Below, in pieces: positions 7,415-39,491 of a stretch of DNA of 64,000 bases. A program made the translations under genes and the position numbers. Each line of letters opens with the position of its first letter. The first letter of the stretch is position 1. Location of the stretch: assembly GCA_032718475.1 (NCBI GenBank), contig JAUCBJ010007204.1, forward strand, positions 1 to 64,000. Reading direction: 5' to 3'. The notes beneath the pieces are model-generated. The model was not told the DNA's origin, did not search any database, and saw nothing but the letters and a program-made list of their open reading frames with translations. Source of the DNA: Nemertoderma westbladi (taxonomy: Eukaryota > Animalia > Xenacoelomorpha).

Positions 7415-7994
7415 TTACTAATGTTCCCTTCTGCCTACCTCAATACTAAAGAAAGTTAGGGGAATTATCGATTATTCATAAGTATTCTCCAAATATAAGC
7501 ATCCATTAAATAGGTTACCAACCACAATGAATAACAGTATAAAAACAGTATAAATTACGCGGTGCCGGCAGTGTCAGAATGTTTGAGAGTCAGAATGTGT
7601 TTACGAGAGTGAGTACCGATAGTAGTACTGTAGTACGAGAGATAATTTATTTGCGTTTGATAATTCTCTCTGGCCGCTGATGGTTCTGGGCAGAAGTCAG
7701 AATGTCAAAATGAAGGATTTGTCGCACTGCGGCATATTCATATGTAAACAAGGCCTTGATAAACCTTAACGTGAAAATCCTGCTGATTGGACGAAAAATA
7801 ACATAGAACATACGGGACAAAGAGAAAGGCTGGCCAATAGCTGGTGATTTCGTCATTAAAGCTCTGCACCAAAATACACGCTAGAGGGCGTAGGTTTATA
7901 GGCCTACGTTCTCCAATCCCTAGAGATAATGCCAGTTTTTTAGAGTAGTTCGCGCATTGTACAAAAAACGACACATTTTTGCCGCAAAAGCTTT

Positions 7995-10610: not shown

Positions 10611-11092
10611 TAACGTTTACACCCGCTCAAAACAACCTCTATTGGGTCTGGTTGGTTAATTAATAGTGTATGACATGAAGGAAGCACACCACCACTCAGC
10701 AGCATTAATGATAATGATATTGGTGAAGTTCGCATCACAGCGGATAGAACATATCGTGACCATAGAGCCAGAACAACACATACCACAATTTTTCAAAAAA
10801 AAAATTTTTCACCAAAATTACTCAAGATGGCGTTCTACATCTTATGTTAAAATCCTAGACTTGTATGTCAGTCCGTTTAGGAGATATGGAAAACCAGAAC
10901 AACCCACACAACATAGAAGTTGAAAACTGTTAGAGGTAAAACAACACATACCACACTTTCCCTATCATACTTTGCCAGGAAAAACACCATTCAATAGTCG
11001 AGGAATGACGTGAGTTCTTATGTTTCTGTGATAAAATCCTAGAGGTAAAACAACACACACAGACTAGAGTTAATGTTAAATTTCAGTATGTG

Positions 11093-12292
11093 TGTAAAAG
11101 CTTTTGTGGGATAACTGATTCGTTTGCCTTGCTGGCCAGTTCCCCCCCCGGTCGCTAGAATACTCTAAAAGGGATCTATAGGTAAAATAGTGCAAGCTAC
11201 CAGCTTATTGGCTGATGGGCTGTACGAAGGTATCTGGGTTCTGTTCGATCGGCCAACCAGCTTAGGGAGGTTGCCTTAGCCCTGCTGTCCGTATCGGCCA
11301 ATAGAATTTGAGTGGGCGTTGATTTTGACCTATCCCAGAGCTACTGAACTGAATTTCCTATCTGTATGCTCATCCTCTGTGTTGGACGGGAGCTTCGGGG
11401 AATAAGGGTAGTTGGTATCCTCGTATAGTTATTCTAGTCATATGATTCTTCATATGATTCTGTTGTTGTGTTCCCATTTTCCGCCATAACACCGGCTTTT
11501 GGGAAGAACTCCAGTAAAACTGCTTAAATTATCGAAAGTATAACTGTTACCTTAACTTACCTTACCTAACTCACTTAATTTAACTGCACTAATCATATTG
11601 TTTGTACTGTTATTTACCGTCAGTTATTAATTGTATATATTTGTTGATGAATTATTGCCCTTTGGAGAATACGGATAAATCACCCAAAATTCCCAATTTT
11701 CTTGATACACTACAGGTTAGAGAGACAGGCTATACATAACAATTGCGATTTATATCAATGTGGTGTGTATTGAATCTAATGTTATTTAGCAGACCCTACA
11801 TGAGTCAATTGCTGCTCTCTTTATGTGTGATCAAGTTTACTGACGGTCGGCAGAGTAGTGTGCATGATTGTGAGTGTGACTGGTAACAAAGCATTTCCTA
11901 AAGAATGCGCCTTATACTTTAATCATAAGCAGTATCGTTGCGTTTAGTATAAGTCCTAGTTCTGTTTAAATAGATAGAGCGCCACGTCCTAAAGGAACTG
12001 TTAATATTTCCCGAAAGCCAATAATATCTGTCAGAAATTAATTATTAACGATCTATCGAATAATACAGTAGGTTTACACTGCAACCTTACACTGCAATAA
12101 TAAAATTTAAGCATCCGAATTCAGCCTCCCGGGTGTAGATCCATCGGGTGAATGATCGCGCATGGGCTGACTTCGGCTAATGTTTTGTTTATTAGCATAA
12201 AATATTGTCGTATGCTAAAGGTGTTTTAATTAACTAAAAGACATATAAATTTTGGCAGGTTAAACTGCTAAAGGTCTTCAAAAGCGCGAACA
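11093..12292 (+). repeat. 5' LTR of element A (1200 bp)
   Basis: TGTAAAAGC...GCGCGAACA; direct repeat of 25216-26413 with about five differences by eye. Confidence 0.95.
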
Positions 12293-12303
12293 GTAACAGT
12301 TAT
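12293..12303 (+). promoter_or_regulatory. Non-canonical primer-binding site, complementary to LTR-internal 11540-11550
   Basis: GTAACAGTTAT abuts the LTR end, lacks the TGG start of a tRNA PBS, and is the exact reverse complement of ATAACTGTTAC (11540-11550). Confidence 0.6.
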
Positions 12304-14553
12304 CGATCTTATTGCAGTAAGCAATAAGGTTGCAAAATACCGTAGTGACCGGTAAACCTGAACCGGTACTTCTGTAGGTCAGTAGGCCCAACTGCCAGAA
12401 CCGGTACTGCTGTAGGTCCGTAGGTCCAACTGCCAGAACCGGTACTTCTGTAGGTCTGTAGGCCCAACTGTCCTAACCGGTACTGCTGTATCAGTACATT
12501 AGTATTATTCGAATTTGATTGGTGTATACCGGTAGGTCTTAGTACTTAATCAGGGACTGCAGCCCTGAATTTTTATTGAGATTCTACTTATTTCTGTCGG
12601 TTTTATTTACTAGTAGGCTAATATTGAGCAGAAGGCGTGTGACCCTGCTCAGATTGTTCAGATAATTGTAGGCTGAGCTGCTGTCTGACTGTTGTTGGGT
12701 TTGGAGAGATTACGGCGTGTGTAGAGTTTGTCTGATAAAGTGCCGTTAGTAAGTTGGGGCAGCCATATGCTGTAAGGTCAATCCCCTCTTAAAGAATAAG
12801 TCGTACTACCGTGTTAGAACGCATACTAACTAACTGTTTCAGAATCTGCATATACTGTAGTTTATTTAGGCTTGATCGTAGTCTGCCAGTGTTTTAGCCT
12901 GTGTTTGTTTGTGTGGTCTGTTCAGGTACCGTAATAGTTATTACTCAGATATTTTGTAGGCTGGATTGTTGTCTAGCTATTATTAGGTCTGAAGAGATTG
13001 CTGTGTGTGTGGAGTTTGTCTGATAAAGTGCTGTTAGTAAGTTGGGGCAGCCATATGCTGTAAGGTCAATCCCCTCTTAAAGAATAAGTCGTACTACCGT
13101 GTTAGAACGCATACTAACTAACCATTTCAGAATCTACACGTACGGTAGTTTATTTAGGCTTGGTGGTAGTCTGCCAGCGTTTGGTTTGTATTTGTTTGAG
13201 TATTCTGTACGGGTAGCGTAATATTTATTATTCAGAGTTTATGCGATTATTCGCAACATTCATGTCCCCAAGTTTATTCCTACAGTAATTGTGCTTGTTA
13301 TACATACCGTTATAGTTAAATTAACCCCGGTACTACACGGGCTGCTTGGCGTAGGACAAGACTGGTGACTTTGTGCTCTGGTCACTCCAGCAGATGCCGT
13401 GGTTCTTTTAACTGTTCAAGTATATTTAACTACTGATTATTTGTTGTACCGGTACTTGTACCTAATTTAGGGTTTAGTGTACAGTGCTTTCCGAAGTAAT
13501 TAGTGTGTAGGCAGTATATTTGTGTTGTAAAGTGGTTGATAGGCACATTCGTTAGCTCTATTAACTTCTGGGTAGGAACACTCCGTGATACATAACGTAG
13601 TACCTATAGCGATACGGTTATAGGTCGTCAGGCGGTGGTATTTTCCTATCTGGACAGCGCAGTATATTTACTACTACTTATTATTTCAAATACCGTAGTA
13701 CCCTGTCTGTTCTAATAACCAGAATTCTAACCCTTTGTTAGGCTGGTTTGTAGACTTCCTGTAAAATTACCCTAAAAAATTTCGTACGTAATATTTTGTT
13801 GTGTTTAATTAGAGAATTAATCTCACCCGTATCGTAAGTAATTTGTAGTATTAAGTAACTTAGGTAAATTAGAATTATCAGTTTTAGTGTCTCAATAAGT
13901 AGCACTTCACTGAGAGCGCACAGCTTCTGTGTAGTGACTCCCCAGAAATAATAACATTTATTTCAAATATTGACAAAACCCATTTTAAACGGGTATATAT
14001 CTATTATAAATCAACTCAAATGATTTATAAATAGTAGGCCTGCCATCCAACAACTAGGTCTCAATATCAGTTGGACTACTGCTTAAATAACGGTAATAAA
14101 GTAAGTTAAAGTAACCAAGTAACCCTAAAATATTCAGAAATTCAATTATTCTAAAAATAATTGACATACCGGTATTTACCATAGGCTTATTATATTTATT
14201 TCTATAAATTTGAGCTGAAATCATACCGGTACTCTGTACTTAATTCTAGTTTGTAATAATTATATTTATATATACTATAAGTGTCAGCTGTATACTGGTA
14301 TTCACGATAGGCCTATTATATATTTATATATATTTGTGCTAAAATTATATACCGGTACTCTGTGACAAATCTAGTCTGTAATAATACGTATATATATATT
14401 ATAAGCATACCGGTATTCTAATATATTGTATATATATCACGTTACACCGAGTAACGGTACCGGTAATAAATAGCTAGGCTTGCGGTCATACTGAATTACC
14501 AGACTTGCTTTAACTGAAACTATAGTAGTAGACATTCAACTGTATAGCTAAAC

Positions 14554-17500
14554 ATGTCTGACACTCAACAAAACCTGTCAGACAGTCTGATCGATACAAC
14601 TATCTGCGACACAGATAGGAGTGTGGAGCGATTAAGAAAGGAGTTCAGCTCACCTCCTACTGCAAAAAAGGTCATCCCTCCAGTAGTATCAGACCCTAGG
14701 CTAATCCACCATAGGTCCATCATAGGCACTCGGGCACAGGTCAAACGGAACCAAGAGGCAGTTATCCTATCGCAGCAACATCTTGGTCAAGAACCTACTT
14801 CACAGCGACCCGATAGCTCCAGCAGTTCGGATACTGTAGAGCTGACCCCCGAACACGGAGTGCAGATGGCTGATACAGTCTACTCGGACCCCCTTCTTAC
14901 CCTTCCTGCTGCAGTGCTAACTACTATATTCATTGCGGTGGAGGAACATCAAGCCGACTGGGCGAGGAATAAGCGAGCGACCCAAGATAATTATGCGGGA
15001 TACGCCAGGGAAGAATTGATGTCTATTGTCGAGTCACAATGGAACTTTCCCGGACTCGGACTCCCGTTGGATCTGTCCGAGGCTACTTGGGAAGATATAC
15101 ACAGGATGGGAGTGGCTAAAGACACAATGGATCCAGCTGTTTGGAAGAGGTCGGCAGCAGGATATGTGCAGGGATTCTTCGGCTCCTTGGAGCGATTGGA
15201 AGAACAACTGTTTCGACAACCTCAAGGACCTCAAGAGCAGGAAGAGCTGCTATACCAAATACGCGAAAGAACCCTACGCATACGACTAATCCTCTCAGCC
15301 TTTGAGGAAACTTCCAAAAGAAGACAGGACACGTCGCTGCAGGTTGCTGTCAAAACTTGGTTACATCGGGTAGATCTTAAAGTACAGGAAACGGCCCAGT
15401 GGAAATCCCAGCTGGCTGAGAGATCAACCTATGAAGAACAAACTGATGTCACCCTTTCTCAAGCGGAAAGCGAAGAGACCGCCGAGAAACCGCGAACTAG
15501 AGACGCTATCGACATATATTTGTCCGACTATCAGCGATTCCTAGGAGACGAAGAGTTGAGGAGACGGCTGTCTGGACTTTCCCCTAATAGTGAAGGAACC
15601 AAGCTTGTGTTGGACTCAATCGATGCGGAAATGTTAGCTGCAAACCAAGCTGAATGTGATGAAAAACTCCGCCTCACTAGAGTCCGAGAAGAACAAGTAA
15701 AGAAAGAATGGATAGAGAAAAGAAAGGTGGCAGCAGCAGCGGCGGCAGAAGCAGAAGCCGAAAGAAAAGCGGCAGAAGCAGAAGCCGAAAGAAAGTCGGC
15801 AAAAGCAGAAGCCGAAAGAAAGGCGGCAGAAGCAGAAGCAGAAGCCGAAAGAAAGGCAGCAGAAGCAGAAGCAGAAAGAAAAGCAGCAGTGGCAGAAGCA
15901 GAAGCCGAAAGAAAGGCGGCAGAAGCAGAAGCAGAAAGAAAAGCAGCAGTGGCAGAAGCAGAACGTAGAGCTTCTGAGGAGACTATCCAATTGGAGTTGG
16001 AAAATCTGCAAGAGACGCAAGACAGTATAAATAAACAGTTTACTGCTAATCAAATGCAGATGATGAGAAAATCTACTCCCAAGCGCCAGGGATACACATC
16101 CTCGGAGGAAGGCGAGACTACCGATCCTGAAGGCGGAGGAAATAGATCTCATCTAAGTAGGCGTAGAAAAACATCTTATCGTCGCAAATTGCCTGATTTG
16201 CCCCCAGCTGTTAGAAGACAGCTAGCTAGCACAGACTTGAGTAGTATAGAACCTACAGCCCAAAGTATTAAAGTCCAAAGACTCTCTACAATAGTTGATG
16301 AGCCTGAGATAATTAGGCCAGTCGTTCCCAAAGTCACTTCTGTGTTAGAGACCCCTGTACTTCCAGAGCTTAACTCTAAATTCCCTTTACATAGTACTAC
16401 ACTGCCTGTACCCGGTGGAACAGTCCAAGAGAATATCTCTGTCCAGATAGCAGAGAGAGAAATCAAAAATTTGTCTCCCGTCGTCCCGCATCAGCCCGCT
16501 ACTATGTTGGCGACTCCCGCTTTGGCGGTTGAGTGGGTAGAAGAGGGACGGCGGGGGATGAATCTCCTGCTAGGACAGATGCAGGAGACTGTCCACCAAC
16601 TTAAGGGAACAGTGAGGGAAGGTAGAGCAGAGTTGCAAGAAGTGCAGCAAAGTATCGCACTAGAACGCGACAAATTAGTCAATATCCAAAAGGGCATACC
16701 AATACCCCCTGTAACATTGTGTCAACCTGTTAGGTCTGAAGTACTACATGCACAAGGTGTGGAGCCTACACGCATCTATACTGCTAGTGAAGTAGAAACT
16801 CCTATAGCAAACCCTATTAAGGGTGATTATACGCCTGTTGCTAATGATATTCCCTATAGACCTGATAATAATCCGAGAAATTTATATACCGATAATTCAA
16901 TATTAAATAACACGATGGCCCAAGAAAGTTTTACGCGTCAGATGGCTAGAACAGAAGCCCGCCAAGCGGTCAAAGTGGGAGAGATCGTCAAATTCAATGG
17001 AGATGAGATGAAATGGTTACCTTTCAACGAATATTACAAAGATAGCATACAGAACTCTGTACTATCTAACGGAGAGAAACTTAGATTCCTCATCAAGTGC
17101 TTGGAAGGACCTCCCAAGTTAATGGCGTTAAAGTTTATTGGACATCCAGATGGATTAAGACAAGTTTGGGATACATTAAACATCAGGTATGGTAACAAGG
17201 ATAACATAGCTAAGTATTTGTATGCAAAATTAGTAGCCCCCCGACACTTCCTTAGTAGCGGGATTATAGAGTTTTCCGATGAAATTCAAGAGATCTGTAG
17301 ACAACTGGACTGGTTAGGTAAGTCACATGAATATCAGAGTTCCATGGTTATTGGAGCCGTAGTCTCTACTTTACCAAAGGGTGGAGTATGTACACGCTGG
17401 GACAAGAAAGTGTTGTACATGAATGAACAACAACGACGAAGTCCTACCATGGCTGATCTCATGTCTTTCTTAGATAGTGAAGTAAAATTACAACTCATAA

Positions 17501-19257
17501 GGCCGTCCAGAGAGAAAACATCAGAAAATAAGGTAAGTGAGAAACCCGTTTCTAGGAGAAGGATAATACCAGTGTGTTATACTGACGAAGGCGAAAGCCA
17601 AGCTTCTCAAGAAGAGGACAGCGGGAAAGACACAGCAAAATCGTACTATGACAACAAGACCTATAAAGACGTAAGTAAATACAAGTCTCGAACCAGTGAC
17701 AGGAGAGAACAGGTAACAACAACTCCTCCTACGTCTCCTAAGAGAATTCCCGGAAGAAAGCCCGAAGAAAGAACGAGAGTGCATAACGTTAACCAAGTTA
17801 AGGTGAGTAACATCAAACCAAAATGTGCGCTGTGCGACGGGCCCCACCGTTTGAGTGCGTGTGCTGAATTTCTAAAGAAATCCCTTGTAGACAGACGTAC
17901 AGTCCTGTGGAATAAGCGGTTTTGCTATAATTGCCTCAGACCAGGACATCAACGGCGAACCTGTTACTCCGACATAAAGTGTGCAAAGTGTGGCGCGAAA
18001 CATCACATCTTGTTACACAGTGAGTTCGAACGAGACAGACAGAGTCAGGTAAGTGAGCCCGAACTACATGTCCAATTCAGTGACGTAAACGACACTGATC
18101 AAGAGTCTGAGATGGAAGGATTCTATACTGACGAATTCTCCGACGCCAATGAATCCTGTTATCTAATAAATACCGCAGTGTATCGAGCACTTACTTACGA
18201 AAAGGACATCAACGATGAGTTTCCCCCAACTACTTTCGCCAAACAACCATCTTGGAAAGCTCCAGCTTCCAACGTAGGAATCAGAGAATTTCCTGTAGTT
18301 CAAGTAAGAGTTCACGGTCTTAACAAAAGCTACATAGTGAACGCCCTCCTTGACTCCGGCAGCACAGGAACATTCATCGATCAAGAACTAGCCGAAGATA
18401 TCTTTGCTGGACAACCCAAGTTCCGGACTAAATTGAATATGTCAGGAATTATGCAGGTTTGGAAATCTACCCTAACGGCAGACTACTATGTAGGTGTGTT
18501 GTCCACCCCCCAGGATAAATTAGGAGCACAAGGTATAAGGTCGGTAAAAATGGTGGCTATAAAGAACTTCGCTACTACCCAAGCAGACCTTTATAATTGG
18601 GACGAGGATGAGAGCATCCAACATCTTAAGATACCTCGAGTCCAGACAGATTATCCTGGAGTGCAAATACTCATCGGCCAAAACGCGCATGAGGCGCTCG
18701 AGACATTGGAGAAACGGCCTGCTCAACCGCAGCCACTACAAACCTATGCGGTAAGAACTAGAGTAGGTTGGTACTTCACTGGCCCTTCCCATAGAACTCT
18801 CAAAGAGAGATTACCTCAACAACAGGTATACCAAGTAAAGGAATGGGAAGTGGAGAGCAGTGATGTGGACGATCCAACTGAGGGAACACCATACTCCTCA
18901 GATAATGACGATATTAACTCCGATGTAGATCAACGGAGACATTGCCTTGGGACAATTAATCCAGCCGACATCGATCCCAGAGGAGCAACTCCTCAAGAAC
19001 TGATGGATACTCCAGGCTGGTTAGGTGGATCCGACTTCTTAAGTAAAGAAGAAGATGAACGGCCTCCTCATCTTACCACGGCGGAGAGTAGACAGGCCAA
19101 GGGAGCGGAGAAAGTAACACGACAACCCAATCACCCAGCTGGTCGTTTATGTTTACTGGAAAGAAACCGGAAACTGTCCGGAAACTATGGAAGGCAAGAT
19201 ACTCTTCCTACGACCACTTCCCTAATCCGACAAATATCTAGGGACTCCATAACGTAA
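14554..19257 (+). CDS. gag: BEL/Pao-type Gag-aspartic protease polyprotein (1567 aa) with vestigial RNase H and integrase remnants
   Basis: Contains a capsid-like segment (KFNGDEMKWLPF...EKLRFLIKCLEG...RYG), three Cys/His knuckles (CALCDGPHRLSAC, CYNCLRPGHQRRTC, CAKCGAKHHILLH), protease ALLDSGS (~18343) and ILIG...TRVGW. These are followed by NPAD..RG....W..G..FL and RLCLLE. An AEAERKA repeat tract lies at ~15740-15970. Confidence 0.9.
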   Translation: MSDTQQNLSDSLIDTTICDTDRSVERLRKEFSSPPTAKKVIPPVVSDPRLIHHRSIIGTRAQVKRNQEAVILSQQHLGQEPTSQRPDSSSSSDTVELTPEHGVQMADTVYSDPLLTLPAAVLTTIFIAVEEHQADWARNKRATQDNYAGYAREELMSIVESQWNFPGLGLPLDLSEATWEDIHRMGVAKDTMDPAVWKRSAAGYVQGFFGSLERLEEQLFRQPQGPQEQEELLYQIRERTLRIRLILSAFEETSKRRQDTSLQVAVKTWLHRVDLKVQETAQWKSQLAERSTYEEQTDVTLSQAESEETAEKPRTRDAIDIYLSDYQRFLGDEELRRRLSGLSPNSEGTKLVLDSIDAEMLAANQAECDEKLRLTRVREEQVKKEWIEKRKVAAAAAAEAEAERKAAEAEAERKSAKAEAERKAAEAEAEAERKAAEAEAERKAAVAEAEAERKAAEAEAERKAAVAEAERRASEETIQLELENLQETQDSINKQFTANQMQMMRKSTPKRQGYTSSEEGETTDPEGGGNRSHLSRRRKTSYRRKLPDLPPAVRRQLASTDLSSIEPTAQSIKVQRLSTIVDEPEIIRPVVPKVTSVLETPVLPELNSKFPLHSTTLPVPGGTVQENISVQIAEREIKNLSPVVPHQPATMLATPALAVEWVEEGRRGMNLLLGQMQETVHQLKGTVREGRAELQEVQQSIALERDKLVNIQKGIPIPPVTLCQPVRSEVLHAQGVEPTRIYTASEVETPIANPIKGDYTPVANDIPYRPDNNPRNLYTDNSILNNTMAQESFTRQMARTEARQAVKVGEIVKFNGDEMKWLPFNEYYKDSIQNSVLSNGEKLRFLIKCLEGPPKLMALKFIGHPDGLRQVWDTLNIRYGNKDNIAKYLYAKLVAPRHFLSSGIIEFSDEIQEICRQLDWLGKSHEYQSSMVIGAVVSTLPKGGVCTRWDKKVLYMNEQQRRSPTMADLMSFLDSEVKLQLIRPSREKTSENKVSEKPVSRRRIIPVCYTDEGESQASQEEDSGKDTAKSYYDNKTYKDVSKYKSRTSDRREQVTTTPPTSPKRIPGRKPEERTRVHNVNQVKVSNIKPKCALCDGPHRLSACAEFLKKSLVDRRTVLWNKRFCYNCLRPGHQRRTCYSDIKCAKCGAKHHILLHSEFERDRQSQVSEPELHVQFSDVNDTDQESEMEGFYTDEFSDANESCYLINTAVYRALTYEKDINDEFPPTTFAKQPSWKAPASNVGIREFPVVQVRVHGLNKSYIVNALLDSGSTGTFIDQELAEDIFAGQPKFRTKLNMSGIMQVWKSTLTADYYVGVLSTPQDKLGAQGIRSVKMVAIKNFATTQADLYNWDEDESIQHLKIPRVQTDYPGVQILIGQNAHEALETLEKRPAQPQPLQTYAVRTRVGWYFTGPSHRTLKERLPQQQVYQVKEWEVESSDVDDPTEGTPYSSDNDDINSDVDQRRHCLGTINPADIDPRGATPQELMDTPGWLGGSDFLSKEEDERPPHLTTAESRQAKGAEKVTRQPNHPAGRLCLLERNRKLSGNYGRQDTLPTTTSLIRQISRDSIT

Positions 19258-20883
19258 TAACATATGGAGTGGGCGTGTGACTATATCATTTTATATTTGT
19301 TTTTATTTTATATTTATGTATGTATTATTATGTAATTTTATTATAATCATTTTCTTTAATTTTTATTTAGTAGAATGTTATTTTAGGGATTATTTAGTAG
19401 ATTAGTGCAATATATTAGTGTTTATTACGTACATAATTACTATAATATATATTTAGTGCGACGGCGAGAAATAATTATTTTTCTCTTCCCTTACTGTCCG
19501 TATCATATTATAAATACGTGACTACAGTAAGATGAAATGTCTGTACTTCTTAAAGTACAATAAAGCCACTACTATATTTAAGTATTATTGGTAGGCAGAG
19601 TATTAGGAATGCAAAGTTCAGATCCTCGTGTCTCGGCTAAACCAAGCTCTGGGTAGACCTTGGAAACGACTTGCCTCTTCACACTGACATTGCTTCGTGC
19701 GATATTGCTCTTCTACCTTATAACAAATAATACATATAGTAGCGTGATGTCCCTCTAACAGTAGCGTAAATCGCAAATAAATCTGTTAAACTTTTTGACC
19801 ATCTGTAATTCTAGTCGATTAAGATATCGTGGCACCCACCGATATACTTGAAAGACAAATTCTAGAATCAGTGGTTAACGTCCCCAGACAAGTTCTGGAA
19901 TAAATCGGTGCCCATCCTAAATATTAATTTAATATTTATTAAAATCTGTAAAATCCCGATCCTTTAAAATTTCTAGTCAATTAAGATATCGCAGTATTTA
20001 CCGATATTCTTAGAAGGACTATTTTATAGAATTAAGGATCCTAAGTCCCCAGATATGCTCTGGAATAAAATTTGTGTCAATTTAACATCAAATAATAAAA
20101 TTCACGGGAATAAATTTAAATTCATATTCAAATGAATTTCATAAATTGTCATTTTGTGCAATTTATAACATTCCCAAAATTCCAGTAATTAATAGATCAT
20201 GGGAGCGGAGATTCATATTGAGTGTACTAGAGTGCGAGAATCTCCAACATATAGTCAATAGCCGATAAAATTTATAAAATCATGCATAAAGAGGATATTG
20301 ACAATTAAAGAATTACTATTAAATAACATCCCAGATCTGTATGCATGAGAATTACCCTAATTCTACCGCTAGTTTTCCATAATGTCACCATGGCAACACC
20401 CACGCTAGAATTAGAAGCAAGTTAAAGGAACAATAAAAAGCTTGCCCCATTGCGTAGCATAAGAGTATACATAGCGCACTATTAGTATCCAAGGATACAT
20501 AGTAATAACGTGACATTCTGGAAGACACTGACTAACGGACAAATGGCATGCATGTGTGCAGTAAGTAATGATTGTATGGAATTTGTGCGTTTATAGGTGA
20601 ATGTTACTACTAAAGTGTGTTTACAGTAGCTAATCGCAATTGTAAAGTAGCCCTAACTCTACCGAGATAACCTCAAGTGGATTCAAGCCTTTGGGACGGA
20701 CAGTGGTGGGACTTGTGCCGGTTATCGTTGTCGTGCTGTTGCTACATGTTGGCGTAAACACCGCGACAACGGTACATCGGCGCTGAGAAACCCACTGTCC
20801 GGGGGCAAAAGCCTAGTAGGCAGCGACGCCCGCTTGCCTAAAATATTAACTCATATTGATATTAATAAACTCAGATAGCAGAT

Positions 20884-23800
20884 ATGACGGAATTGATAGA
20901 AGATGACCTTGGTATCAGGGAGCGATATACTCTACCTTTACAAGCGTTTGTGGATAGCTTGATACGCGGTGAAGCCGATCCGACTATTACGGAGGACGAT
21001 GGTCGTTATATCGAACCGCCGATGTCCCAGGAACAACTTACGCGTGAATTGGACTATAGAAAATTCACCGCTCGCTATACGAATCGTAATGGTACGTATA
21101 TGGACTTCTTAACTACCGGCCATCCTACCGATTTACATGATACGGAAGATGTAGACACCGAAAGGGAAATGGTTTTATTTAAATATCATGCCCAGCGGAA
21201 TCGTAATGATAAACCGAGAATAGAACACGAGAACTCTATTCGCAACCTACTCGACAGAGAAAACGTTGAAGAACCCGATAAGCGCCTCAACTTCAACGAC
21301 TACTTGGAATTTTTGAGAGAAACCTATCTCAATATTGCCAGTCAACAGAACCTAGAGACTCGATATCCTCAAGGTATACATCACGATCCCATGGTAGAAC
21401 TCAAACGACTCTATTTCACCATGATGTATCTTACCGCAGATCGTCCACTGCCTGTTGTCCCGGACAGCTTTGAACAAATGGAAGAGTATTGCAAAACTGG
21501 AGAACGATCACCCGCGTTTCCTCTGCAGGACGTACGTCTTTGGTATTATTGTGACTCATGTCCTAGACCTAACCAGCAAACGGAAAGACATAAACATCCG
21601 CGGAGACGTTGTGCTAAACACAGTTTTACGCGTTATACTTACGGGAGTTTCGAGCGAAACCTGTTCGACGTATCACCTACGATCGCCCGTCTAAAACGCT
21701 CGCTAAATAAACCCATGATCAGAGTTCCGGAATACTCGGTCAGGCCTCCCCATTTCCCCGTGAGACCTCAAACTCTTGATCCTAACAGTATCACTGATCC
21801 TCCCGAGTTATACTCACTGTTCAAAGATTTGGTGTTACCCGAGCAGTTAATCGGTGGTGTTCCAGCGGTAGGTTCGTTAGATATTCGACCATCCTATTTA
21901 ACCGCATTGGGACGCGGGCATCTAACATCGCCATTTAATCCTTACAATCGGCCAGGATTAACTCCGATACAACCTGCCACGGAAGTCGAGGAGAGTGTCA
22001 TCAGAAACGCTCTAGACGCCATCCGACAGAAAATCGGAAAGGGAACCCAGGATTTTCTAGAGAAACGTAAATTACAGCAGCAGGTCCAATCGGTGAAAGA
22101 GTTAGCCTTGCCGCAGTTTGATAGAGAAATCCAAAACCTCGAAGAGGACATCGAGCTTGGACGTACGTATTCTCTACAGGAGTTTCTAGAAGAACGCTTA
22201 CAGAAACAAGCGGAGGAAAATCAACTAGAGGAGAAACATACGGAAATGGATGAGAGAGAAGAAGCCGCTTTAGCCCAACCCGAAGCTCAGATACTCATAA
22301 CCGATCTCTACTCTAAAACCGTCCGTCATCCCTCGATGGTTCCGCATTTCGGAGATAAACTTTTCGCAAAGATACAACCCCAACCGGTTGATATCAGCAT
22401 AAGATCGCAAAATCTTATCGCCGACGCTCCTATGTTACAGCGTCCGCCAATCGAGGCCGCTCGAGTTGACGGTATACTCGTTGAACCTCCGGACAATCGA
22501 GCGGATCTTGTCCGTCGTATGGTACACGATGTCAACATACGCGCTAGACCTTTACAGAACTCTTTTTATGGAATTAAAGACCACCCTTATTACGTTAATC
22601 TGACTCAATATTATATGGTCAAACCAGAAGATCCGACGCATAATTTAAAGTTTCTACCACTAATAAATCCTCTGGACATTGTCGAACTCGAACAATTACA
22701 AAAACATCTGGATCAGTTAGTAAAGGTAAACTCATTTCGAAAACCATATAACGTTTCTCGAATAGAGAAGGATACAGAACCTCCTTATAATCTCGATGGA
22801 TTTATTAAAACTCGATTAGTCCATTGGAATCTAGACGTATTATTCGAGGAGGAGAAAATACAACGATATGGAAATGTGGAGACGTATACCACTCGATACC
22901 TGAAGTATAGTGATCTCCCTGACGCTAATCAATGCGCCACCTTGTGGCATCCGGTAGGGATGACCCTCGAGAACGCCACCAAAGAGTGGAATGAAACTCT
23001 TAATATCATTGAGATGTATGGCGTTGTTACTTACGATAACGAAGGTAGCGTTCCAACCGGAGAATTAGGAACTACGCGCATGATACACATACGCGGATTA
23101 GCTGGTTCCACTCACGTGTTTACGCGAGCGTGTTCCGACGTGATAGATTATTCCTTTGAAACTCTCACCGAAACGCAAAAGAATCTCCGACATGGACAAT
23201 TCGAACTCGCGCAGCGTTACGTCATTGATACCGAACGCAAACCGGCCATGGGTATCGATGGATCAATGTTACCCCAGCCCGTTCTCGAGATGTTATTCAA
23301 CGAAAGAATCATTAAAATCGGCTCAGCTGTTTACGGAGATCTCCAAAACGACTTTCGGAATATGGAAAATATCCCCTATCCTTTCGTGGATACTCAGCTG
23401 ATAGCTCCTTGGGCCGAAGGCCGAGGTTTCTTCCGCACCATGTATGCTAATGCGTCTAGCGACATTACAAAGGTGCAACGAACTTCCATCGGACATCTTG
23501 CTTTTCAGGAATACGGATGGAATTTCAAGGTCGGAAACCCCATCAACTATCAACAAGTATACGGAGACCATTATTCTCGATTATACTTTGACGGACCGTT
23601 GACCGCACCTGGCGCCGTGTATAGCTTCATGAGTGTTCCACTCCGCCCCTCCTTAGCTATCTACACGATCTTCGAAAACACCGCACTTTCCGGTTGGCTA
23701 GCCGATGTGTGCAGTCGTACTATACGCGCCCATCCATTAATCCTTGGGACCAAACTCGCTAAGCTAGATGAACATAATAAATTCATCCGCTTTGAATGTT

Positions 23801-25137
23801 TCCGACGGTTTTTAACCCCGTTTCGCAATGTGGATAGCCAATTCAAAGACCGCGCTTTGACCAAGCTCAGCTTAAGAGACTCGGCTGCGGAGAAGTTAGA
23901 TAGTGCTGGATTTGCTATTTTCAAAGACGTTTGTATAATAAACCTGCACTCCTCGGTTATCCAAAGACCTCGGATCCCCACAGGTTATTCTGTCGTGGAA
24001 ATTCAGACGGTAGGTCCACTTGAAGAAACGGCCATACCTACCTCAACTATACAAGGGGAAGACGAACCCATATGTTTAGAATCTGAAGAGATTCAGCCCC
24101 CCACGTCTCGGAGTAGCGATAGCGACTACATATTGGAATGGTATCAAGGTCCACAGTGTCTCACTGCGTATGATTATCGCCATGCCAATTATGTTTCTCG
24201 ACAACGCTGTCGGCTGTGCGCATCGAGAGACCATATTACGTCTATGGACACCAACGATCTCTGTTCCTATTTCCACGAGCAACCGTCGATGGAAATCTAT
24301 TGTGCATATTGTCGGCTTAATAATTTGCATATTTTTGCTGTCTGTCCCCAATTTATGACTCAATGCCATCATTGTCAATTAAAAGGACACGCCAGCTTTG
24401 ATTGTCCCTTTAATCATGATTTAGAGAGCGTAGATGAAATGATTGTACTACATTATATCAGAGCTTGGGAAGCGAACGCTGATTTACATTGTGATTCACG
24501 CCATCGCTATTACCCTGGACGCGCTTACGAAGGAGTTTATGCGTTCCATCCTTATTTGTTTGCCTCCGTCGAGCAGAAATCACGCCTATCAAGTTATGAA
24601 CTATTGAAACGCGTTGGAGAATGTATTTCAACTAAATATGTACGCAAATTTCTCAGGAGCATTAATCCGAGTGACATCAATTCTTACAACTTAATAAACT
24701 TTATCCGTCAAGATCCGGCCTATGGAGACTTGTTTGTCAACTCACACCCCGAGTTACAGGAAGTGTATCGACGGCCTTACGAGTATCGAGCCCGCGAACG
24801 CGAGTTGGAAAGAACCATTAAACCAAGGAAGTTTCTAACTGCCTATGGTCCACCCACGGCCCTCGTTCAGACCACTCATAAAGGACCCGTAAGAGAGGCT
24901 GTCTTGAAACGAGCTCTTAAAGCCGTTAGACCCCTCTCCCCGGACGTTGATGTCAATCAACCCGGTACGTCGACCGGCGGATATACCGATCGTAATCCCA
25001 TACCTTCTGATGCAATCATATTGCACCCTTCACCCAGGAGTTATAGCCCTCCTTGTAAAGTGGCTCGCCCCAAAGAGAAAAGGACTCTTGCTAGCCTTAA
25101 AAAACTGCGTAAACGCCGTCCGCGCAAGAAAGACTAA
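20884..25137 (+). CDS. Element-borne 1417-aa ORF2: DEDDy 3'-5' exonuclease-like domain, CCHC zinc knuckles, basic C-terminus
   Basis: Uninterrupted ORF inside the LTRs. Motifs: ExoI VVTYDNEG (D718/E720), LPQPVLEMLFNERIIKIG, ExoII ..YGDL (D819), FVDTQLIA, SIGHLAFQEYG, and ExoIII-like PL...YTIFE (Y927/E931). Zinc knuckles: CRLCASRDH, CAYCRLNNLHIFAVC, CHHCQLKGHASFDC. It ends KKLRKRRPRKKD. Confidence 0.8.
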   Translation: MTELIEDDLGIRERYTLPLQAFVDSLIRGEADPTITEDDGRYIEPPMSQEQLTRELDYRKFTARYTNRNGTYMDFLTTGHPTDLHDTEDVDTEREMVLFKYHAQRNRNDKPRIEHENSIRNLLDRENVEEPDKRLNFNDYLEFLRETYLNIASQQNLETRYPQGIHHDPMVELKRLYFTMMYLTADRPLPVVPDSFEQMEEYCKTGERSPAFPLQDVRLWYYCDSCPRPNQQTERHKHPRRRCAKHSFTRYTYGSFERNLFDVSPTIARLKRSLNKPMIRVPEYSVRPPHFPVRPQTLDPNSITDPPELYSLFKDLVLPEQLIGGVPAVGSLDIRPSYLTALGRGHLTSPFNPYNRPGLTPIQPATEVEESVIRNALDAIRQKIGKGTQDFLEKRKLQQQVQSVKELALPQFDREIQNLEEDIELGRTYSLQEFLEERLQKQAEENQLEEKHTEMDEREEAALAQPEAQILITDLYSKTVRHPSMVPHFGDKLFAKIQPQPVDISIRSQNLIADAPMLQRPPIEAARVDGILVEPPDNRADLVRRMVHDVNIRARPLQNSFYGIKDHPYYVNLTQYYMVKPEDPTHNLKFLPLINPLDIVELEQLQKHLDQLVKVNSFRKPYNVSRIEKDTEPPYNLDGFIKTRLVHWNLDVLFEEEKIQRYGNVETYTTRYLKYSDLPDANQCATLWHPVGMTLENATKEWNETLNIIEMYGVVTYDNEGSVPTGELGTTRMIHIRGLAGSTHVFTRACSDVIDYSFETLTETQKNLRHGQFELAQRYVIDTERKPAMGIDGSMLPQPVLEMLFNERIIKIGSAVYGDLQNDFRNMENIPYPFVDTQLIAPWAEGRGFFRTMYANASSDITKVQRTSIGHLAFQEYGWNFKVGNPINYQQVYGDHYSRLYFDGPLTAPGAVYSFMSVPLRPSLAIYTIFENTALSGWLADVCSRTIRAHPLILGTKLAKLDEHNKFIRFECFRRFLTPFRNVDSQFKDRALTKLSLRDSAAEKLDSAGFAIFKDVCIINLHSSVIQRPRIPTGYSVVEIQTVGPLEETAIPTSTIQGEDEPICLESEEIQPPTSRSSDSDYILEWYQGPQCLTAYDYRHANYVSRQRCRLCASRDHITSMDTNDLCSYFHEQPSMEIYCAYCRLNNLHIFAVCPQFMTQCHHCQLKGHASFDCPFNHDLESVDEMIVLHYIRAWEANADLHCDSRHRYYPGRAYEGVYAFHPYLFASVEQKSRLSSYELLKRVGECISTKYVRKFLRSINPSDINSYNLINFIRQDPAYGDLFVNSHPELQEVYRRPYEYRARERELERTIKPRKFLTAYGPPTALVQTTHKGPVREAVLKRALKAVRPLSPDVDVNQPGTSTGGYTDRNPIPSDAIILHPSPRSYSPPCKVARPKEKRTLASLKKLRKRRPRKKD

Positions 25138-25207
25138 CTGTTTAGAGTATTTTTATATTTTAGAAACTGTGATTTTGTATATTTTATAGACTTAAATCCT
25201 ATTTTCT

Positions 25208-25215
25208 GGGAGCGG
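25208..25215 (+). promoter_or_regulatory. Short polypurine-tract-like sequence
   Basis: GGGAGCGG immediately precedes the 3' LTR; it is short and imperfect. Confidence 0.5.
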
Positions 25216-26413
25216 TGTAAAAGCTTTTGTGGGATAACTGATTCGTTTGCCTTGCTGGCCAGTTCCCCCCCGGTCGCTAGAATACTCTAAAAGGGATCTA
25301 TAGGTAAAATAGTGCAAGCTACCAGCTTATTGGCTGATGGGCTGTACGAAGGTATCTGGGTTCTGTTCGATCGGCCAACCAGCTTAGGGAGGTTGCCTTA
25401 GCCCTGCTGTCCGTATCGGCCAATAGAATTTGAGTGGGCGTTGATTTTGACCTATCCCAGAGCTACTGAACTGAATTTCCTATCTGTATGCTCATCCTCT
25501 GTGTTGGACGGGAGCTTCGGGGAATAAGGGTAGTTGGTATCCTCGTATAGTTATTCTAGTCATATGATTCTTCATATGATTCTGTTGTTGTGTTCCCATT
25601 TTCCGCCATAACACCAGCTTTTGGGAAGAACTCCAGTAAAACTGCTTAAATTATCGAAAGTATAACTGTTACCTTACTTACCTTACCTAACTCACTTAAT
25701 TTAACTGCACTAATCATATTGTTTGTACTGTTATTTACCGTCAGTTATTAATTGTATATATTTGTTGATGAATTATTGCCCTTTGGAGAATACGGATAAA
25801 TCACCCAAAATTCCCAATTTTCTTGATACACTACAGGTTAGAGAGACAGGCTATACATAACAATTGCGATTTATATCAATGTGGTGTGTATTGAATCTAA
25901 TGTTATTTAGCAGACCCTACATGAGTCAATTGCTGCTCTCTTTATGTGTGATCAAGTTTACTGACGGTCGGCAGAGTAGTGTGCATGATTGTGAGTGTGA
26001 CTGGTAACAAAGCATTTCCTAAAGAATGCGCCTTATACTTTAATCATAAGCAGTATCGTTGCGTTTAGTATAAGTCCTAGTTCTGTTTAAATAGATAGAG
26101 CGCCACGTCCTAAAGGAACTGTTAATATTTCCCGAAAGCCAATAATATCTGTCAGAAATTAATTATTAAAGATCTATCGAATAATACAGTAGGTTTACAC
26201 TGCAACCTTACACTGCAATAATAAAATTTAAGCATCCGAATTCAGCCTCCCGGGTGTAGATCCATCGGGTGAATGATCGCGCATGGGCTGACTTCGGCTA
26301 ATGTTTTGTTTATTAGCATAAAAGATTGTCGTATGCTAAAGGTGTTTTAATTAACTAAAAGACATATAAATTTTGGCAGGTTAAACTGCTAAAGGTCTTC
26401 AAAAGCGCGAACA
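25216..26413 (+). repeat. 3' LTR of element A (1198 bp)
   Basis: Direct repeat of 11093-12292, followed by the TSD ATGTG. Confidence 0.95.
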
Positions 26414-27860: not shown

Positions 27861-29057
27861 TGTAATGGCTTTTGCGGATCTAACTAGTTATTTTCCCCGC
27901 AAAGTACTCTGTAGGTGTTTTAACGGACATAAAAAGCCGTTTCCTTACTGTACCGGTGTTTTAGTGGACATAAAAGCCATTTCTTCTATATGTGTACTTT
28001 AGCGGACATAACTACTGTGTACTTTAGCGGACATAACTAGCGATCTTATGTCGCAATAGCCAAAATCCTCTTGACACAGTGTAGTTACTATGACGACGGC
28101 TAACAGCTGATCTGTACACGTGGAGGTTTTCCTTTGTTCTCTGTCGTTTCTTTGTTCGGTCGACCAATCAGAGCGTTTTTTTTGACTCTGTGTTGGAGGT
28201 TGTATACAGAAACTCAGGAATTGAGTCAGTATGTGCATTTGGTCCTGGGCCCAGAAGACCGGCTTTGGAATCTCTGTGTTTTCAGTCTTTAGCCCAACAT
28301 TAGTAGGCTTAATTATAGAACGTATATCTGTTATCTTACAAACCACAAACCAATTCATATCTACAAACACCGCATTTTACTGCTATTTACTGTCGGTCAT
28401 TAATTATATCAGTTGTTTGATGGAATATTATTATATTGGATAATATCGATAAATTAATCATAAAACCCTCAATCTTCTTGATATACTGAAGGTAAGAGAG
28501 ACCGGTTACATATAACGATTGCGACTTACATTAAAGTGGTTTTGAAGTGAATCTAATGCTATTTCATAGGCACTACATGTATTGGTTGTTGTTCTCTTTA
28601 TATGTGACTAAAATTAGTGAAGGTCGGCAGATCGGTGTGCAGCATTGTGCAGTATTCTGTATGATTGTGACTGATAACAAAGCATCTCCTAAAGAATGCG
28701 CCATATACGTGAATCCATAGCCATCCCGTTGTGTCTAGTTAAAGTCATAACTCTGTTTATATATTTAGAGCGCCACGTCCTAAAGGAACTGTTAATATTT
28801 CCCGAAAGTTAATAATATTTGTCAGAGATTATATATTACGATCAGTCGAATAATACAGTAGAGTAGGCCTACACCGCAATAAGGTTAGGCTTCCGAATCC
28901 AGTCTCCCGGGTATATCCAAGGGGTGAATGGTCGCGCATAGACTGGCTTCGGCTAATGTAGTGTATCAAATACTCGTCATAGGCTAAAGTCGATTTATTA
29001 TCTAGAAGACATCCAAATTTGGCAGGTTAAACTGCTAAAGGTCTAAAAGCGCAAACA
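27861..29057 (+). repeat. 5' LTR of element B (~1197 bp)
   Basis: TGTAATGGCTTTTG...GCGCAAACA. The 3' two-thirds align with the element A LTR; the 5' part is diverged and has short (TTTAGCGGACATAA)-like repeats. Confidence 0.85.
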
Positions 29058-32000
29058 ATAACAGATATAGCTTCTGTATTGCAGTAGGCAATAAAGCTGA
29101 AGTACCGGTCAACCGGTACCTAGTAGGCCTGACTACCTAACCACCCGGACTGGTACCTACAGCAGTACAGGTACCGTACAGCAGTATTATTTCGATTGTG
29201 ATATATTGTATATTGTAGGCTGTTAGGGGATTAGGGATTGATCACCCCTTATTCCTTTGTATGGTTTACTTATTTCTGTCAGTTTTATTTATTTGTAGGC
29301 CAATATTGAGCAGAAGGCGTGTAAGCCTGCTCAGATTGTACAGATAATTTGTAGGCTGGACTGTTGTCTGACTGTCGTTAAGTCTGAAGGGACTGTAGTG
29401 TGTGTAGAGCGTATGTCCGAAAAAGTACTAGTTAGGAAAGTAGGGGCTTCCAGTGCTGTGAGGTAAACCCCCTCGAAAGAATAAGTCGTACTACTCGGTT
29501 AGAACGCATACTAACTAACCATTTCGGAGTCTGCATATACTGTAGTTTATTTAGGCTTGATAGTAGTCTGTCAGCGTTTGGTCTGTATTTTGTTTGAGTA
29601 GTCTGTACGCGTAGCGTAATATTTATTATTCAGAGTTTATGCGATTATTCGCAACATTCATATCCCCAAGTTAATTCCTACAGTAATTGTGCTTGTTATA
29701 TATACCGTTATAGTTAAACTAACCCCGGTACTACATCAGGGCTGCTTGGCGTAGGTAAAGACTGGTGATTTTGTGCCCCGGTCACTCCAGCAGATACCGT
29801 GGTTCTTTTAGCTATTCAAGTATTTTTAACTACTGATTATTGGTTGTATAAGTACTTGTACCTAATTTAGGGTTTAGTGTACAGTGCTTTCCGAAGGTAA
29901 TTAGTGTGTAGGCAGTGTATTTGTGTTGTAAAGTGGTTAATAGGCACGTTGGTTCTCGTAGACCGCGGTAATTAACTTCTAGGTAGGAACACTCCGTGAT
30001 ACATAACGTAGTACTTATAGCGATACGGCTATAAGTCGTCAGACGGTGGTATTTTTCCTATCTGGAAATATATTTATAAAATAGTAGGCCTGTCTTACAA
30101 CAATTAGGTCTCAATATCAGTTGGACTACTGCTCAAATAACAGTAATAAAGTAAGTAAAGTAACCAAGTAACCCCTAAAAATTCAGAAATTCAATTATTT
30201 AAAATAATTGACATACCGGTATTTACAATAGGCTTATTATATTTATTTCTATAAATTTAGGCTGAAATCATACCGGTATTCTGTAATTAATTCTAGTCTG
30301 TAATTATACTTATATATATACTATAAGTAAGCTGTATACCGATATTCACGATAGGCCTATTATATATTTATAAATTTAGGCTGAAATTATACCGGTATTC
30401 TGTAATTAATTCTAGTTCATAATTATACTTATATATACTATAAGTGTAAGCTGTATACCGGTATTCACAATAGGCCTATTATATATTTATATATATTTGT
30501 GCTGAAATTACATACCAGTATTCTGTGACAAACCTAGTCTGTAATAATACTTATATATATATACTATAGGTGTATACCGGTATTCTAATATATTATATAT
30601 ATATATCACGCTACACTGAGTAGCAGTATCGGTAATTAATTACTAGGCTAACAGTTGATACTGAATTACTAGACTTGCTTTAACTGTAATATAGCAGTAG
30701 GCATTCACCTGTACAAACAAACATGTCTGACACAAAGCAAAACCTGTCAGACAGTCTCCTAGATACAACCATCTGTGACCCAGACAAGAGTGTGGAACGT
30801 GTGAGACCGAAGTTCAACTCACCTCCTACTGTAAGAAAGATCATCCCTCCAGTAGTAGTATCAGACCCTAGGCTAGTCCAACACCGTAGGTCTATCATAG
30901 GCACTCGAGCTCAGGTCAAGCGGGACCAAGAAGCAGCGGAACAGCGGCAACACTCGAGCCGAGAACTTATTTCTCAGCGGCCCGACAGCTCCAGTAGTGA
31001 GGATACTGTAGAGCTGACACCCGAGCACGGAGCAAAGATGACAGATGCGGTTTATTCGGATCCCCTTCTCATCCTTCCTGCAGCCGTACTCACTAGGGTA
31101 TTGATTGCGGTGGAGGAACACCAGATTGATTGGGCGAGAAGTAAGCGATCGACTAAGGATAGTTATGCGGGATACACAAGGGAAGAACTGAAGTCTATTG
31201 TCGAGTCGCAATGGAACTTCCCCGGACCCGGACTCCCGTTTGACTTATCGGAAGCTGCCTGGGAAGACATACACAGGATGGGAGTGACAAAGGAAACCAG
31301 CGATCCAGCTGTGTGGAAGAGGTCAGCAGCCGGATACGTACAGGGATTCTTCAGCTCCATGGAGCGATTAGAGGAACAATTGTTTAGACAACCACAAGGA
31401 CCTCAAGAGCAGGGAGAGCTGCTTTATCAAGTTCGAGAAAGAATTCTAAGAATCAGACTAATCCTATCGGCCTTTGAGGAGGCTTCGAAAAGAAGACAAG
31501 ACACGTCGTTGCAAGTTGCCGTAAAGACTTGGTTACAGCGGGTGAGTCTCCAAGTTCAAAGAACTGCCCCGTGGAAATCTCAGCTGGCTGAGCGCTCAAC
31601 CCTTGGAGAATCAACAGACGCTACCTTTTCACAAGTGGAAAGCGAAGCGACAGCAGAGAAACCGCATAAGAGGGATGTTATTGACATCTATCTGTCAGAC
31701 TATCAACGCTTTGTAGGTGATGAAGAGTTGAGGAGAAGGCTAGATGGACTTAGCCCTAATAGTGAAGGAGCCAAGCTTGTGTTGGACGCTATCGATGCGG
31801 ATATGAGAGCTGCGAACCAAGCTAAATTTGATGAACGCCTCCGTATCGCTAGAGTCCAAGAAGAACAAGTAAAGAAAAAACGTATAGAAGACAGAAAGAC
31901 AGCGGCAGTGGCAGCAGCAGTGGCAGCGGCAGAAGCAGAAAGAAAGGCGGCAGAGGTAGAAGCCGAAAGAAAGGCGGCAGAGATAGAAACAGAAAGAAAG

Positions 32001-34319
32001 GCAGCAGAGGTAGAAGCCGAAAGAAAGGCGGCAGAGATAGAAGCAGAAAGAAAAGCGGCAGTGGCAGCGGCAGAAGCAGAAAGGAGAGCGTCTGAAGAGA
32101 TCGCCCAACTAGATTTGGAAAATATTCAAGAGAATCAAGACTGCATAAATAAACAGTTAACAGCTAGTCAAATGCAGATGATGAGTCGATCTACTCCCAA
32201 AAGACAGGGATATACATCATCTGAGGAAGGCGATACAACCGATACTGAAGGCGGAGGAAATAGATCTCGTCTAAGCAGACGTAGAAGAATATCCCACCGT
32301 CAGAAATTGCCTGATTTGTCCCCAGCTGTTAGAAGGCAACTAACTAACACCAACTTAGGTAGTACAGAACCCACAGACCAAATAATTAAAATAGAAAAAC
32401 TCCCTACTATAGTAGATGAGCCTGAAATAATTAGGCCTGTTCTCAAAGCCACCCCTTCGGTGATAGAGACACCTGTACTCCCTGAACCTACCTCTAAATT
32501 CCCTCTGCACAGCACTAAGCTACCTGTGCCCCACAGAACCACCCTTGAAAATGTTCATGTCCTGGACTCCGAGCGAAATATTAATGATTTGTCGCCCGTT
32601 GTCCCTCGTCCGCCCGCTACAACGTTGGCGCCTCCCGCTTCGGCGGTCGAGTGGGTAGATGAGGGACGACGGGAGATGGGTCTCCTGCTCGGGCAGCTGA
32701 GGGAACACCGTTCCCGCTCCTCTCAGCAAGTCCAGGAGATGGAGGGGATTGTGCAGCAGTTAAAGGGAACAATTAGAGAGAGTAGGTTAGAGTTGCAAGA
32801 AGTGCAGCAAAGTATCACGTTAGAACGCGATAAATTAGTAAATACACAAAAGGGTATACCACCACCCCCTGTAACAATATGTCAACCTGTTAGGTCTGAA
32901 GTATTTCATGCGCAAGGTGTGGAGCCTACACGCATCTATACTGCTAGCGAAGTGGAAACTCCTATAGTAAACCCTATTAAGGGTAATTATAAACCTGTTG
33001 ACAATGATATCCCATATAGACTTGATAATAATCCGAGAAATTTATATACCGATAACTCGATATTAAATAACACGATGCCCCAAGAAAGTTTTACGCGTCA
33101 AATGGCTAGAACCGAAGCCCGTCAAGCGGTAAAGGTAGGAGAGATCGTTAAGTTCAATGGAGATGAGATGAAATGGTTACCTTTTAATGAATATTACAAA
33201 GATAACATACAGAACTCTGTGCTATCAAACGGAGAGAAACTTAGATTCCTCATCGAGTGCTTGGAAGGATCTCCCAAGTTAATGGCGTTAAAGTTTATTG
33301 GACATCCCGATGGATTAAGACAAGTTTGGGATACCCTAAACATCAGGTATGGTAATAGGAATAACATAGCTAGGTATTTGTATGCAAAATTGGTAGCGCC
33401 CCGAAAATTCATTAGCAGCGGGATTATAGAGTTTTCTGATGAGATTCAGGAGATCTGTAGACAATTAGATTGGCTAGGTAAGTCTCATGAATATCAGAGT
33501 TCTATGGTTATTGGAGCTGTGGCCTCTACTTTACCGAAGGGTGGAGTAGGTACACGCTGGGATAAGAAAGTGTTATATATGATGGAACAGCAACGACGAG
33601 ACCCTACCATGGCTGATCTCATGTCATTCTTGGATGGAGAAGTGAAATTACAACTCCTAAAGCAGTCCAGAGAGAAGACACCGGAAAACAAGGTAAGTGA
33701 GAAACCCGTTTCTAGGAGAAAGGTAACCCCAGTGTGTTATACCGACGACGGCGAAAGCCAGGCTTCTCAAGGAGAGGACAGCGGGAAAGACACTGAAAGA
33801 TCTTATGTCAACAAAACGCCTAAAGATGTAAGTAAATTCAGGTCTCGAACCAATGACAGGAGAGAACAGGTAAGAAAAACCCCTCCTACGTCTCCTAAGA
33901 GAATTCAAGTAAGAAAGCCCGAAGAAAGAACGAGTGTGCACAACGTTACTCAAAATAAGGTAAGTAACATCAAACCGAAATGTGCGCTGTGTGACGGGCC
34001 CCACCGTTTGAATGTGTGTGATGAATTCCTAAAGAAATCATTAACAGATAGACGGGAAGTCATATGGGATAAGCGGTTGTGTTATAATTGCCTCAGACAA
34101 GGACACCAACGGCGAACCTGTTACTCCGACGCAAGGTGTGCAAAGTGCGGTGCGAAACATCATATCTTGTTGCACACTGAATTCGAGCGAAACAGCCCGA
34201 GTCAGGTAAGTGAGTCCGAACTACATGTCCAATTCAGTGATGTGAATGACACTGACCAAAGTTCTGAGATGGAAGGATTCTATACGGACGAATTCTCCGA
34301 CGAAGACGAATCCTGTTAC
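27861..34319 (+). mobile_element. Second, diverged member of the same LTR family (element B), 3'-truncated
   Basis: LTR, leader and gag are collinear with element A. Similarity stops abruptly after GAATCCTGTTA (~34319); no 3' LTR or ORF2 is in the window. Confidence 0.9.
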
Positions 34320-39358: not shown

Positions 39359-39491
39359 TGTACAATATTGTGACTCCGCCACAATATTCGATTTAAATAA
39401 AGTACGTACCCGTATTTCACTTTCAGGCACTCATTTCGTATTTCACTCAGTCGCTTACGCTCGTTCTTAATAAAATTTATTCGAATAAGTA

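Follow-up and report, generated by a model that had tools for sequence, protein, structure and literature searches.

Probable priming of reverse transcription by LTR-derived RNA in a non-autonomous BEL/Pao retrotransposon family of Nemertoderma westbladi

In Tf1, the RNA's first 11 bases anneal to the PBS, and cleavage by RNase H falls between bases 11 and 12 (PMC7175516, excerpt). The Tf1 primer lies within a three-helix structure (PMC10085805, excerpt), and about half of the Tf1 cDNA carries a copied PBS (PMC11042837, excerpt). Self-priming is also listed for Tf1/sushi, Tcn1 and TAR elements (PMC6317226 and PMC4600332, excerpts), and for the TAR lineage of Ty1/copia (Houba, Osr-1) it was predicted from an LTR complement of at least 10 nt to bases 0-5 nt past the LTR (PMC6317226, excerpt). 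For the Belpaoviridae, the ICTV profile gives an 18-nt PBS for tRNA-Arg or tRNA-Gly and a length of 4.2-10 kb, and describes replication as poorly understood (PMC8742986). A DUF1759 capsid and a triple Cys-His box are the hallmark of BEL-type Gag (PMC554778, excerpt). Full-text searches of the literature gave no report of BEL/Pao self-priming, and subscription journals, Repbase reports or supplements may hold one. In PMC3118150 the terms primer, priming, PBS and tRNA are all absent (term search), the excerpt of PMC554778 mentions neither PBS nor tRNA, and nothing on BEL/Pao priming was found in the excerpts of PMC3601003, PMC5006619, PMC5443660, PMC5371799 and PMC8220671, nor by a term search of PMC7472051. 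Self-priming is described in the literature found only for other retrotransposon groups. Cer7 of Caenorhabditis elegans is a BEL/Pao element that has reportedly been proposed to carry its own tRNA-like primer, which is said to be a separate internal tRNA-like sequence and not, as here, a stretch of the LTR.

We analysed a stretch of 64,000 nt from N. westbladi (assembly GCA_032718475.1, contig JAUCBJ010007204.1, positions 1 to 64,000; hereafter the window), in which two related elements, A and B, have their features on the + strand. Element A spans 11093-26413 (15.3 kb) between two LTRs. The 5' LTR (11093..12292, 1200 nt, TG...CA) is 99.6% identical to the 3' LTR (25216..26413), with 5 differences, and identical 5-mers flank the element as a target-site duplication (left 11088..11092, right 26414-26418), so element A is a recent insertion. 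A purine-rich tract ahead of the 3' LTR (25208..25215) is a candidate PPT. ORF1 (14548..19257, ATG 14554) encodes a BEL/Pao gag, a protease and, after these, just a short piece left over from the RNase H end. DUF1759 was detected in ORF1 (Pfam E 8.8e-12), the Gag has three Cys-His boxes (triple Cys-His nucleocapsid), and 13 of 14 database homologues contain PF05380 (BEL/Pao family). Together with the TG...CA LTRs, the PPT and the target duplication, these features bear out the BEL/Pao affiliation given in a preliminary description of the window. The pol of A consists of the protease and the RNase H remnant only, and neither RT nor integrase was matched in the element by motifs or by tblastn with full-length relatives; judged by its gag-protease, element A is a non-autonomous BEL/Pao derivative. 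No autonomous partner supplying its enzymes was found in this analysis. Element A shares with the Belpaoviridae (Sinbad, Suzu, Tas, BEL, Pao) the DUF1759 capsid, the triple Cys-His box, a DSG protease, TG...CA LTRs and the 5-bp duplication, but differs in a self-complementary PBS of 11-12 nt (A/B), its greater length, a mostly missing pol and an extra ORF that is not env-like.

In a gag-protease tree, for which 54 candidate rows were kept, short or split matches were excluded and 12 of 49 inner branches are open, the A/B pair falls among non-insect elements on a long unresolved branch (length 3.6). The A family is very abundant in public contigs, with 11545 contigs of run X1 placed over 1451 nt. 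An exact 21-nt LTR pattern matched 0 metagenome stretches, and among viral contigs 0 of 35 candidates were confirmed as BEL loci. The 2.3-kb leader (12293-14553) contains internal duplications, with units of about 290, 126 and 38 nt, that are common to B.

Element B is inserted in a LINE endonuclease ORF (26990-27865, Pfam). Its 5' LTR (27861..29057, 1197 nt) is 75% identical to that of A over the last 683 nt, and its first part is not alignable with LTR A. A 43-nt block (11976-12018) is identical between the two LTRs, which are elsewhere 75% alike. The gag of B (30690..34322) encodes a protein 79% identical to that of A and breaks off before the protease; on this Gag identity, B is classed as a sister family of A. 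Element B ends inside gag, and no 3' LTR of B was found within the window. The rest of the window contains a STAT gene (43378-45645) in one uninterrupted frame of 755 aa, which together with the LINE fragments marks the host as an animal, and two DXD glycosyltransferase ORFs (36317-37366 and 47865-49109) that are 95% identical over 880 nt, the matched part being intronless. Inverted arrays of a 21/43-nt unit at 38157-41149 form long inverted repeats, possibly the ends of a foldback-type element, and tandem arrays were seen at 49309-51467 (63-nt unit, 35 copies) and 55925-61955 (39-nt unit, 155 copies).

The PBS of A (12293..12303) directly follows the LTR and is the exact complement of 11540..11550, hereafter the partner and predicted self-primer. 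Likewise, the PBS of B (29058..29069) is the exact complement of its partner at 28323..28334. The partners start 448 nt into the LTR in A and 463 nt in B, and in both elements the 3' base of the partner pairs with the first base after the CA of the LTR, which is the register of a primer. By alignment, both A/B changes within the shared 11 nt of the PBS are matched in the partner, and TGG, expected of a PBS for a tRNA 3' end, is absent from the first 21 nt of both leaders. The preliminary description had noted these reverse complements, about 450-460 nt into the LTR, with their register, their two compensated differences and the missing TGG, and our reanalysis agrees with it on each. A third A/B difference, at PBS position 12, is uncompensated in A, so that A pairs over 11 nt and B over 12 nt.

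The duplex energy was about -11.7 kcal/mol and weakened to -5.7 and -6.5 kcal/mol when the partners were swapped between A and B. A complement from the first base as long as the one found arose in 4/5000 (A) and 0/5000 (B) dinucleotide shuffles of the LTR, and in 7/5000 (A) and 11/5000 (B) when offsets of 0-5 were permitted; an equally good match to the LTR was seen at 8 of the 12908 positions internal to A. Both 800-nt leaders, when folded from the partner onward, which presupposes an RNA start there, contained the helix in their minimum-energy structure, with pair probabilities mostly above 0.9 (0.67-0.99 for the partner of A in an 821-nt fold begun at 11540). In 50-nt bins, the LTRs of A and B were 23-45% identical upstream of the partner, and beginning at 11593 they were 62-88% identical. 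Such a loss of alignability just upstream of the partner, not base-exact, is as would be expected of a U3/R border. The 40 nt downstream of the partner hold a single G in each element. Folding predicted a 12-bp hairpin (12304..12332) right after the PBS of A, the 5' arm of which can alternatively pair with LTR positions 12091-12100 at an energy not beyond chance. A partner assembled by splicing was rejected for A and B, as no GT-AG join outdoes the contiguous match.

Like Tf1/Tf2/Tj1, Tf1/sushi and Tcn1, these elements have no tRNA PBS and carry an LTR complement of about 11 nt to a PBS that abuts the CA of the LTR, and the PBS of B shares the first five bases of the Tf1 PBS (PMC11042837, excerpt). 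They differ from Tf1/sushi in having a BEL/Pao gag and no chromodomain gene, in being non-autonomous, and in a partner about 750 nt from the PBS. The 5'-end primer, the RNase H cut and the three-helix 'pretzel' of Tf1 are putative in A and B. Helices flanking the pairing as in the pretzel are possible at homologous places in A/B, with energies not beyond chance, being matched by 170/300 and 45/300 shuffles. Both elements also show the TAR feature, a complement of at least 10 nt located 0-5 nt after the LTR (PMC6317226, excerpt); the TAR elements, however, are plant copia elements, and their self-priming is likewise only predicted. Judged from its pairing, the family probably works like Tf1, yet it is no Tf1/sushi member by its gag and homologues, which are BEL/Pao.

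We also examined variation among public contigs. A T inserted after 12299, together with omission of C12304, was seen in contigs of all four runs. If the pairing matters, an extra A was therefore predicted in the partner, before the partner contigs had been inspected. An extra A after 11541 was then found in X1 (4 contigs) and X3 (2 contigs); at 11543 it showed up in the form of loose ends, 7 in X1 and 1 in X6. The depths of the two forms were 90.7 and 97.6 in X6, and the summed depths of the matched insertions disagree in X1 (7103 vs 1282) and X3 (5900 vs 18836). The matched insertion, present in X1, X3 and X6, is unphased, as no contig covers both PBS and partner, and in X4 the PBS insertion is present while the single contig over the partner lacks the match. 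No substitution was listed at 11534-11551 in the four runs, whereas 11527, 11533 and 11552-11566 vary. This conservation is partly a limit of the tool, because contig cover drops steeply across 11540-11554 and changes near contig ends go unlisted.

Other BEL/Pao loci were sought in metagenome contigs, with five aligned non-insect relatives as the query. This gave at least 599 stretches, 543 of them confirmed, and the best 80 were kept (78 distinct). The LTR end was undefinable in 70 of the 78 loci, and the other 8 have a repeat whose 3' copy diverges; L067 was excluded as a tandem repeat, leaving 7 usable loci, a set that is biased by the query and not representative of all BEL/Pao. A long ORF with an RT motif is present in 6/7. 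None of these seven unrelated loci has TGG in its first six leader bases. In five of the seven, pairing with the locus's own LTR begins at the first base and extends over 9 nt (L016), 9 nt (L018), 11 nt (L019), 7 nt (L061) and 15 nt (L070), and cross pairings among the loci plus A and B gave a complement of at most 7 nt in 72. The complements of L019 and L070 were matched by 0/2000 shuffles. In L065 and L064 only 4 and 3 nt pair from the first base, and the complements lie at an offset (10 nt at offset 4 and 12 nt at offset 9, respectively); the two loci differ from each other by one matched change. In the leaders of L064 and L065, after 155 and 207, a self-complementary stretch extends to the gag start. 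Loci L017 and L024 show the 9-nt match of L016 and were left uncounted, their LTR ends being located by motif. The self-pairing loci are spread over several subclades of the gag-protease tree.

Removal of a GT-AG intron from the LTR completed the partner in three of these loci, to 11 nt in L016 (6924-7109), 12 nt in L018 (10968-11068) and 10 nt in L061 (LTR 7593-8052). Of the 72 cross cells, 1 exceeded zero; the donor motifs had been picked after L016 and L018 were seen. The dependence of the full partner on intron removal in these loci suggests that the primer does not have to be the very start of the RNA. A 16-nt spliced match of L061 was discarded, its donor lying outside the LTR.

ORF2 of A (20869..25137, ATG 20884) is intact and encodes 1422 aa with a predicted 3'-5' exonuclease-like domain and Cys-His knuckles. 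Compared with PF01612 (3'-5' exonuclease) clusters it reached ESM Atlas feature scores of 0.90 and 0.92, and an ExoI-like D-x-E occurs at residues 727-729 without an HMM hit. A search for homologues gave no match in Pfam (above the cut-off), PDB sequences or protein databases, and a single-sequence structure model was unusable (pLDDT 29.7). The exonuclease-like assignment, drawn from language-model features and motifs, is a lead only. The LTR elements Juno and Vesta of bdelloid rotifers have a DEDDy exonuclease ORF3, like the extra 3' ORF of A (PMC5408684, excerpt), but they are not BEL/Pao, and ORF2 is likened to theirs via the same features and motifs only. ORF2 is apparently expressed via a message spliced from an LTR donor, the GT of which starts at 11716 (28492 in B; motif scan), to an acceptor AG at 20665-20666. 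One X6 contig joins 11715 to 20667 across GT-AG ends, the run type of X6 being guessed as DNA. The LTR upstream of 11716 is a likely first exon for ORF2, with the start position left unplaced. From the same donor a candidate LTR intron of 77-78 nt extends over 11716-11792 (A) and 28492-28569 (B), with conserved donor, branch-point-like word and acceptor. An additional conserved donor-like site lies at 12259 (A) and 29026 (B).

Self-priming is strengthened by the predicted third matched change, the conservation of the partner and the same pairing in unrelated BEL/Pao loci. Overall, we consider it highly probable that this family primes with its own LTR-derived RNA. The form we prefer, and regard as reasonably likely, is a Tf1-like one in which the LTR stretch of 11-12 nt from the 5' copy primes minus-strand DNA instead of a tRNA. 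Transcription would begin at or upstream of 11540 in the 5' LTR, and the partner would fold onto the PBS from a distance of about 750 nt. Cleavage behind 11550 would leave a 3' end with its terminal base paired to the base that directly follows the LTR, and minus-strand synthesis would begin at the terminal CA of the LTR. The partner would be restored from the 3' LTR copy, and the primer would be copied in plus-strand synthesis, carrying primer changes into the PBS; copying of the PBS onto the cDNA end, as in Tf1, would alone suffice to pass them on. RT, RNase H and integrase would come in trans from an autonomous relative, because element A is without them.

An RNA start near 11540, with the first 11-12 nt as the primer, is a prediction made in the preliminary description, on which the promoter-like words cut both ways. 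A TATA-like word at 11539 overlaps the 5' end of the partner, both elements have an Inr-like word 33-34 nt further downstream, and neither element has a TATA-like word 25-35 nt upstream of the partner. An RNA start downstream of the partner, near 11573, with the primer taken from the 3' copy or another transcript, is thus a real rival; it would refute the Tf1 geometry but not self-priming, because the partner copy in the 3' LTR is also transcribed. On the other side, in other copies the partner and the downstream block stand up to 10 nt closer together, and the partners of the seven other loci are not TATA-like, six of the seven sitting 13-35 nt before AATAAA/ATTAAA (absent in A and B), the usual place of a short R. 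Another suggested start, TCAGTT near 11621, was set aside, since the word differs at the aligned place in B, a similar word occurring nearby. Stated more broadly, the primer may be self-derived without being the RNA's first bases, the RNA starting near 11573 or far upstream. The source of the primer would then be either the partner in the 3' LTR or a separate transcript with LTR sequence (a solo LTR or the spliced ORF2 message), annealed to the PBS and shortened to the duplex by cutting or trimming. This would account for all of the covariation equally well, and a second partner copy (25662-25672), very many LTR copies, the splice-assembled partners in 3/7 other loci and the exonuclease-like ORF2 agree with it. 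We nevertheless hold it to be rather unlikely, as cutting in the 3' copy would strip R from that RNA, and the other loci, which are autonomous, showed no sign of requiring an additional ORF. A bolder version, which we find improbable, has LTR-derived RNA annealing to the PBS, the 3'-5' exonuclease of ORF2 trimming it to the duplex, and a large part of the non-insect BEL/Pao being self-primed; ORF2 would be made from the spliced message, which skips the PBS. This would explain why Gag and ORF2 are kept intact in an RT-less parasite.

Priming by a host RNA (a tRNA half or small RNA), with the LTR-PBS helix regulating translation, dimerisation or packaging, would fit the Belpaoviridae as described, with tRNA-Arg or tRNA-Gly primers (PMC8742986), and half-tRNA priming exists in Ty1/copia (PMC6317226, excerpt). 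Three PBS variants within one family, differing even at the 3' base of the primer, and seven unrelated PBS sequences that each follow their own LTR make it doubtful at best, since repeated copying of a host primer would return the PBS to a single sequence. The shared CTGTTA core presumably resembles a tRNA-Asn anticodon loop. No tRNAs or Rfam families were detected in the window by ARAGORN and Rfam. A helix with a purely structural role would have no need to start exactly where the LTR ends, yet in 7/9 elements the helix does so. A coincidental pairing, or an old, short and functionless inverted duplication, is very improbable and largely refuted by the shuffle tests, the matched changes and the diagonal in the cross table, even though the sequence of A is nearly palindromic and A+T-rich and the contiguous 7 nt of L061 equal the best cross pairing.

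Self-priming has been demonstrated in Tf1, and it has been inferred in its gypsy relatives and in a single copia lineage; if the present reading is true, BEL/Pao would be the third superfamily, and self-priming would either have been invented repeatedly or be an ancient property of LTR elements. The young and very high-copy A family allows exact predictions, namely RNA termini at positions 11540 and 11551. Such elements would be missed or misplaced by annotation software for which a tRNA PBS is a requirement. The elements themselves would be independent of the host tRNA supply and would offer no target to tRNA fragments.
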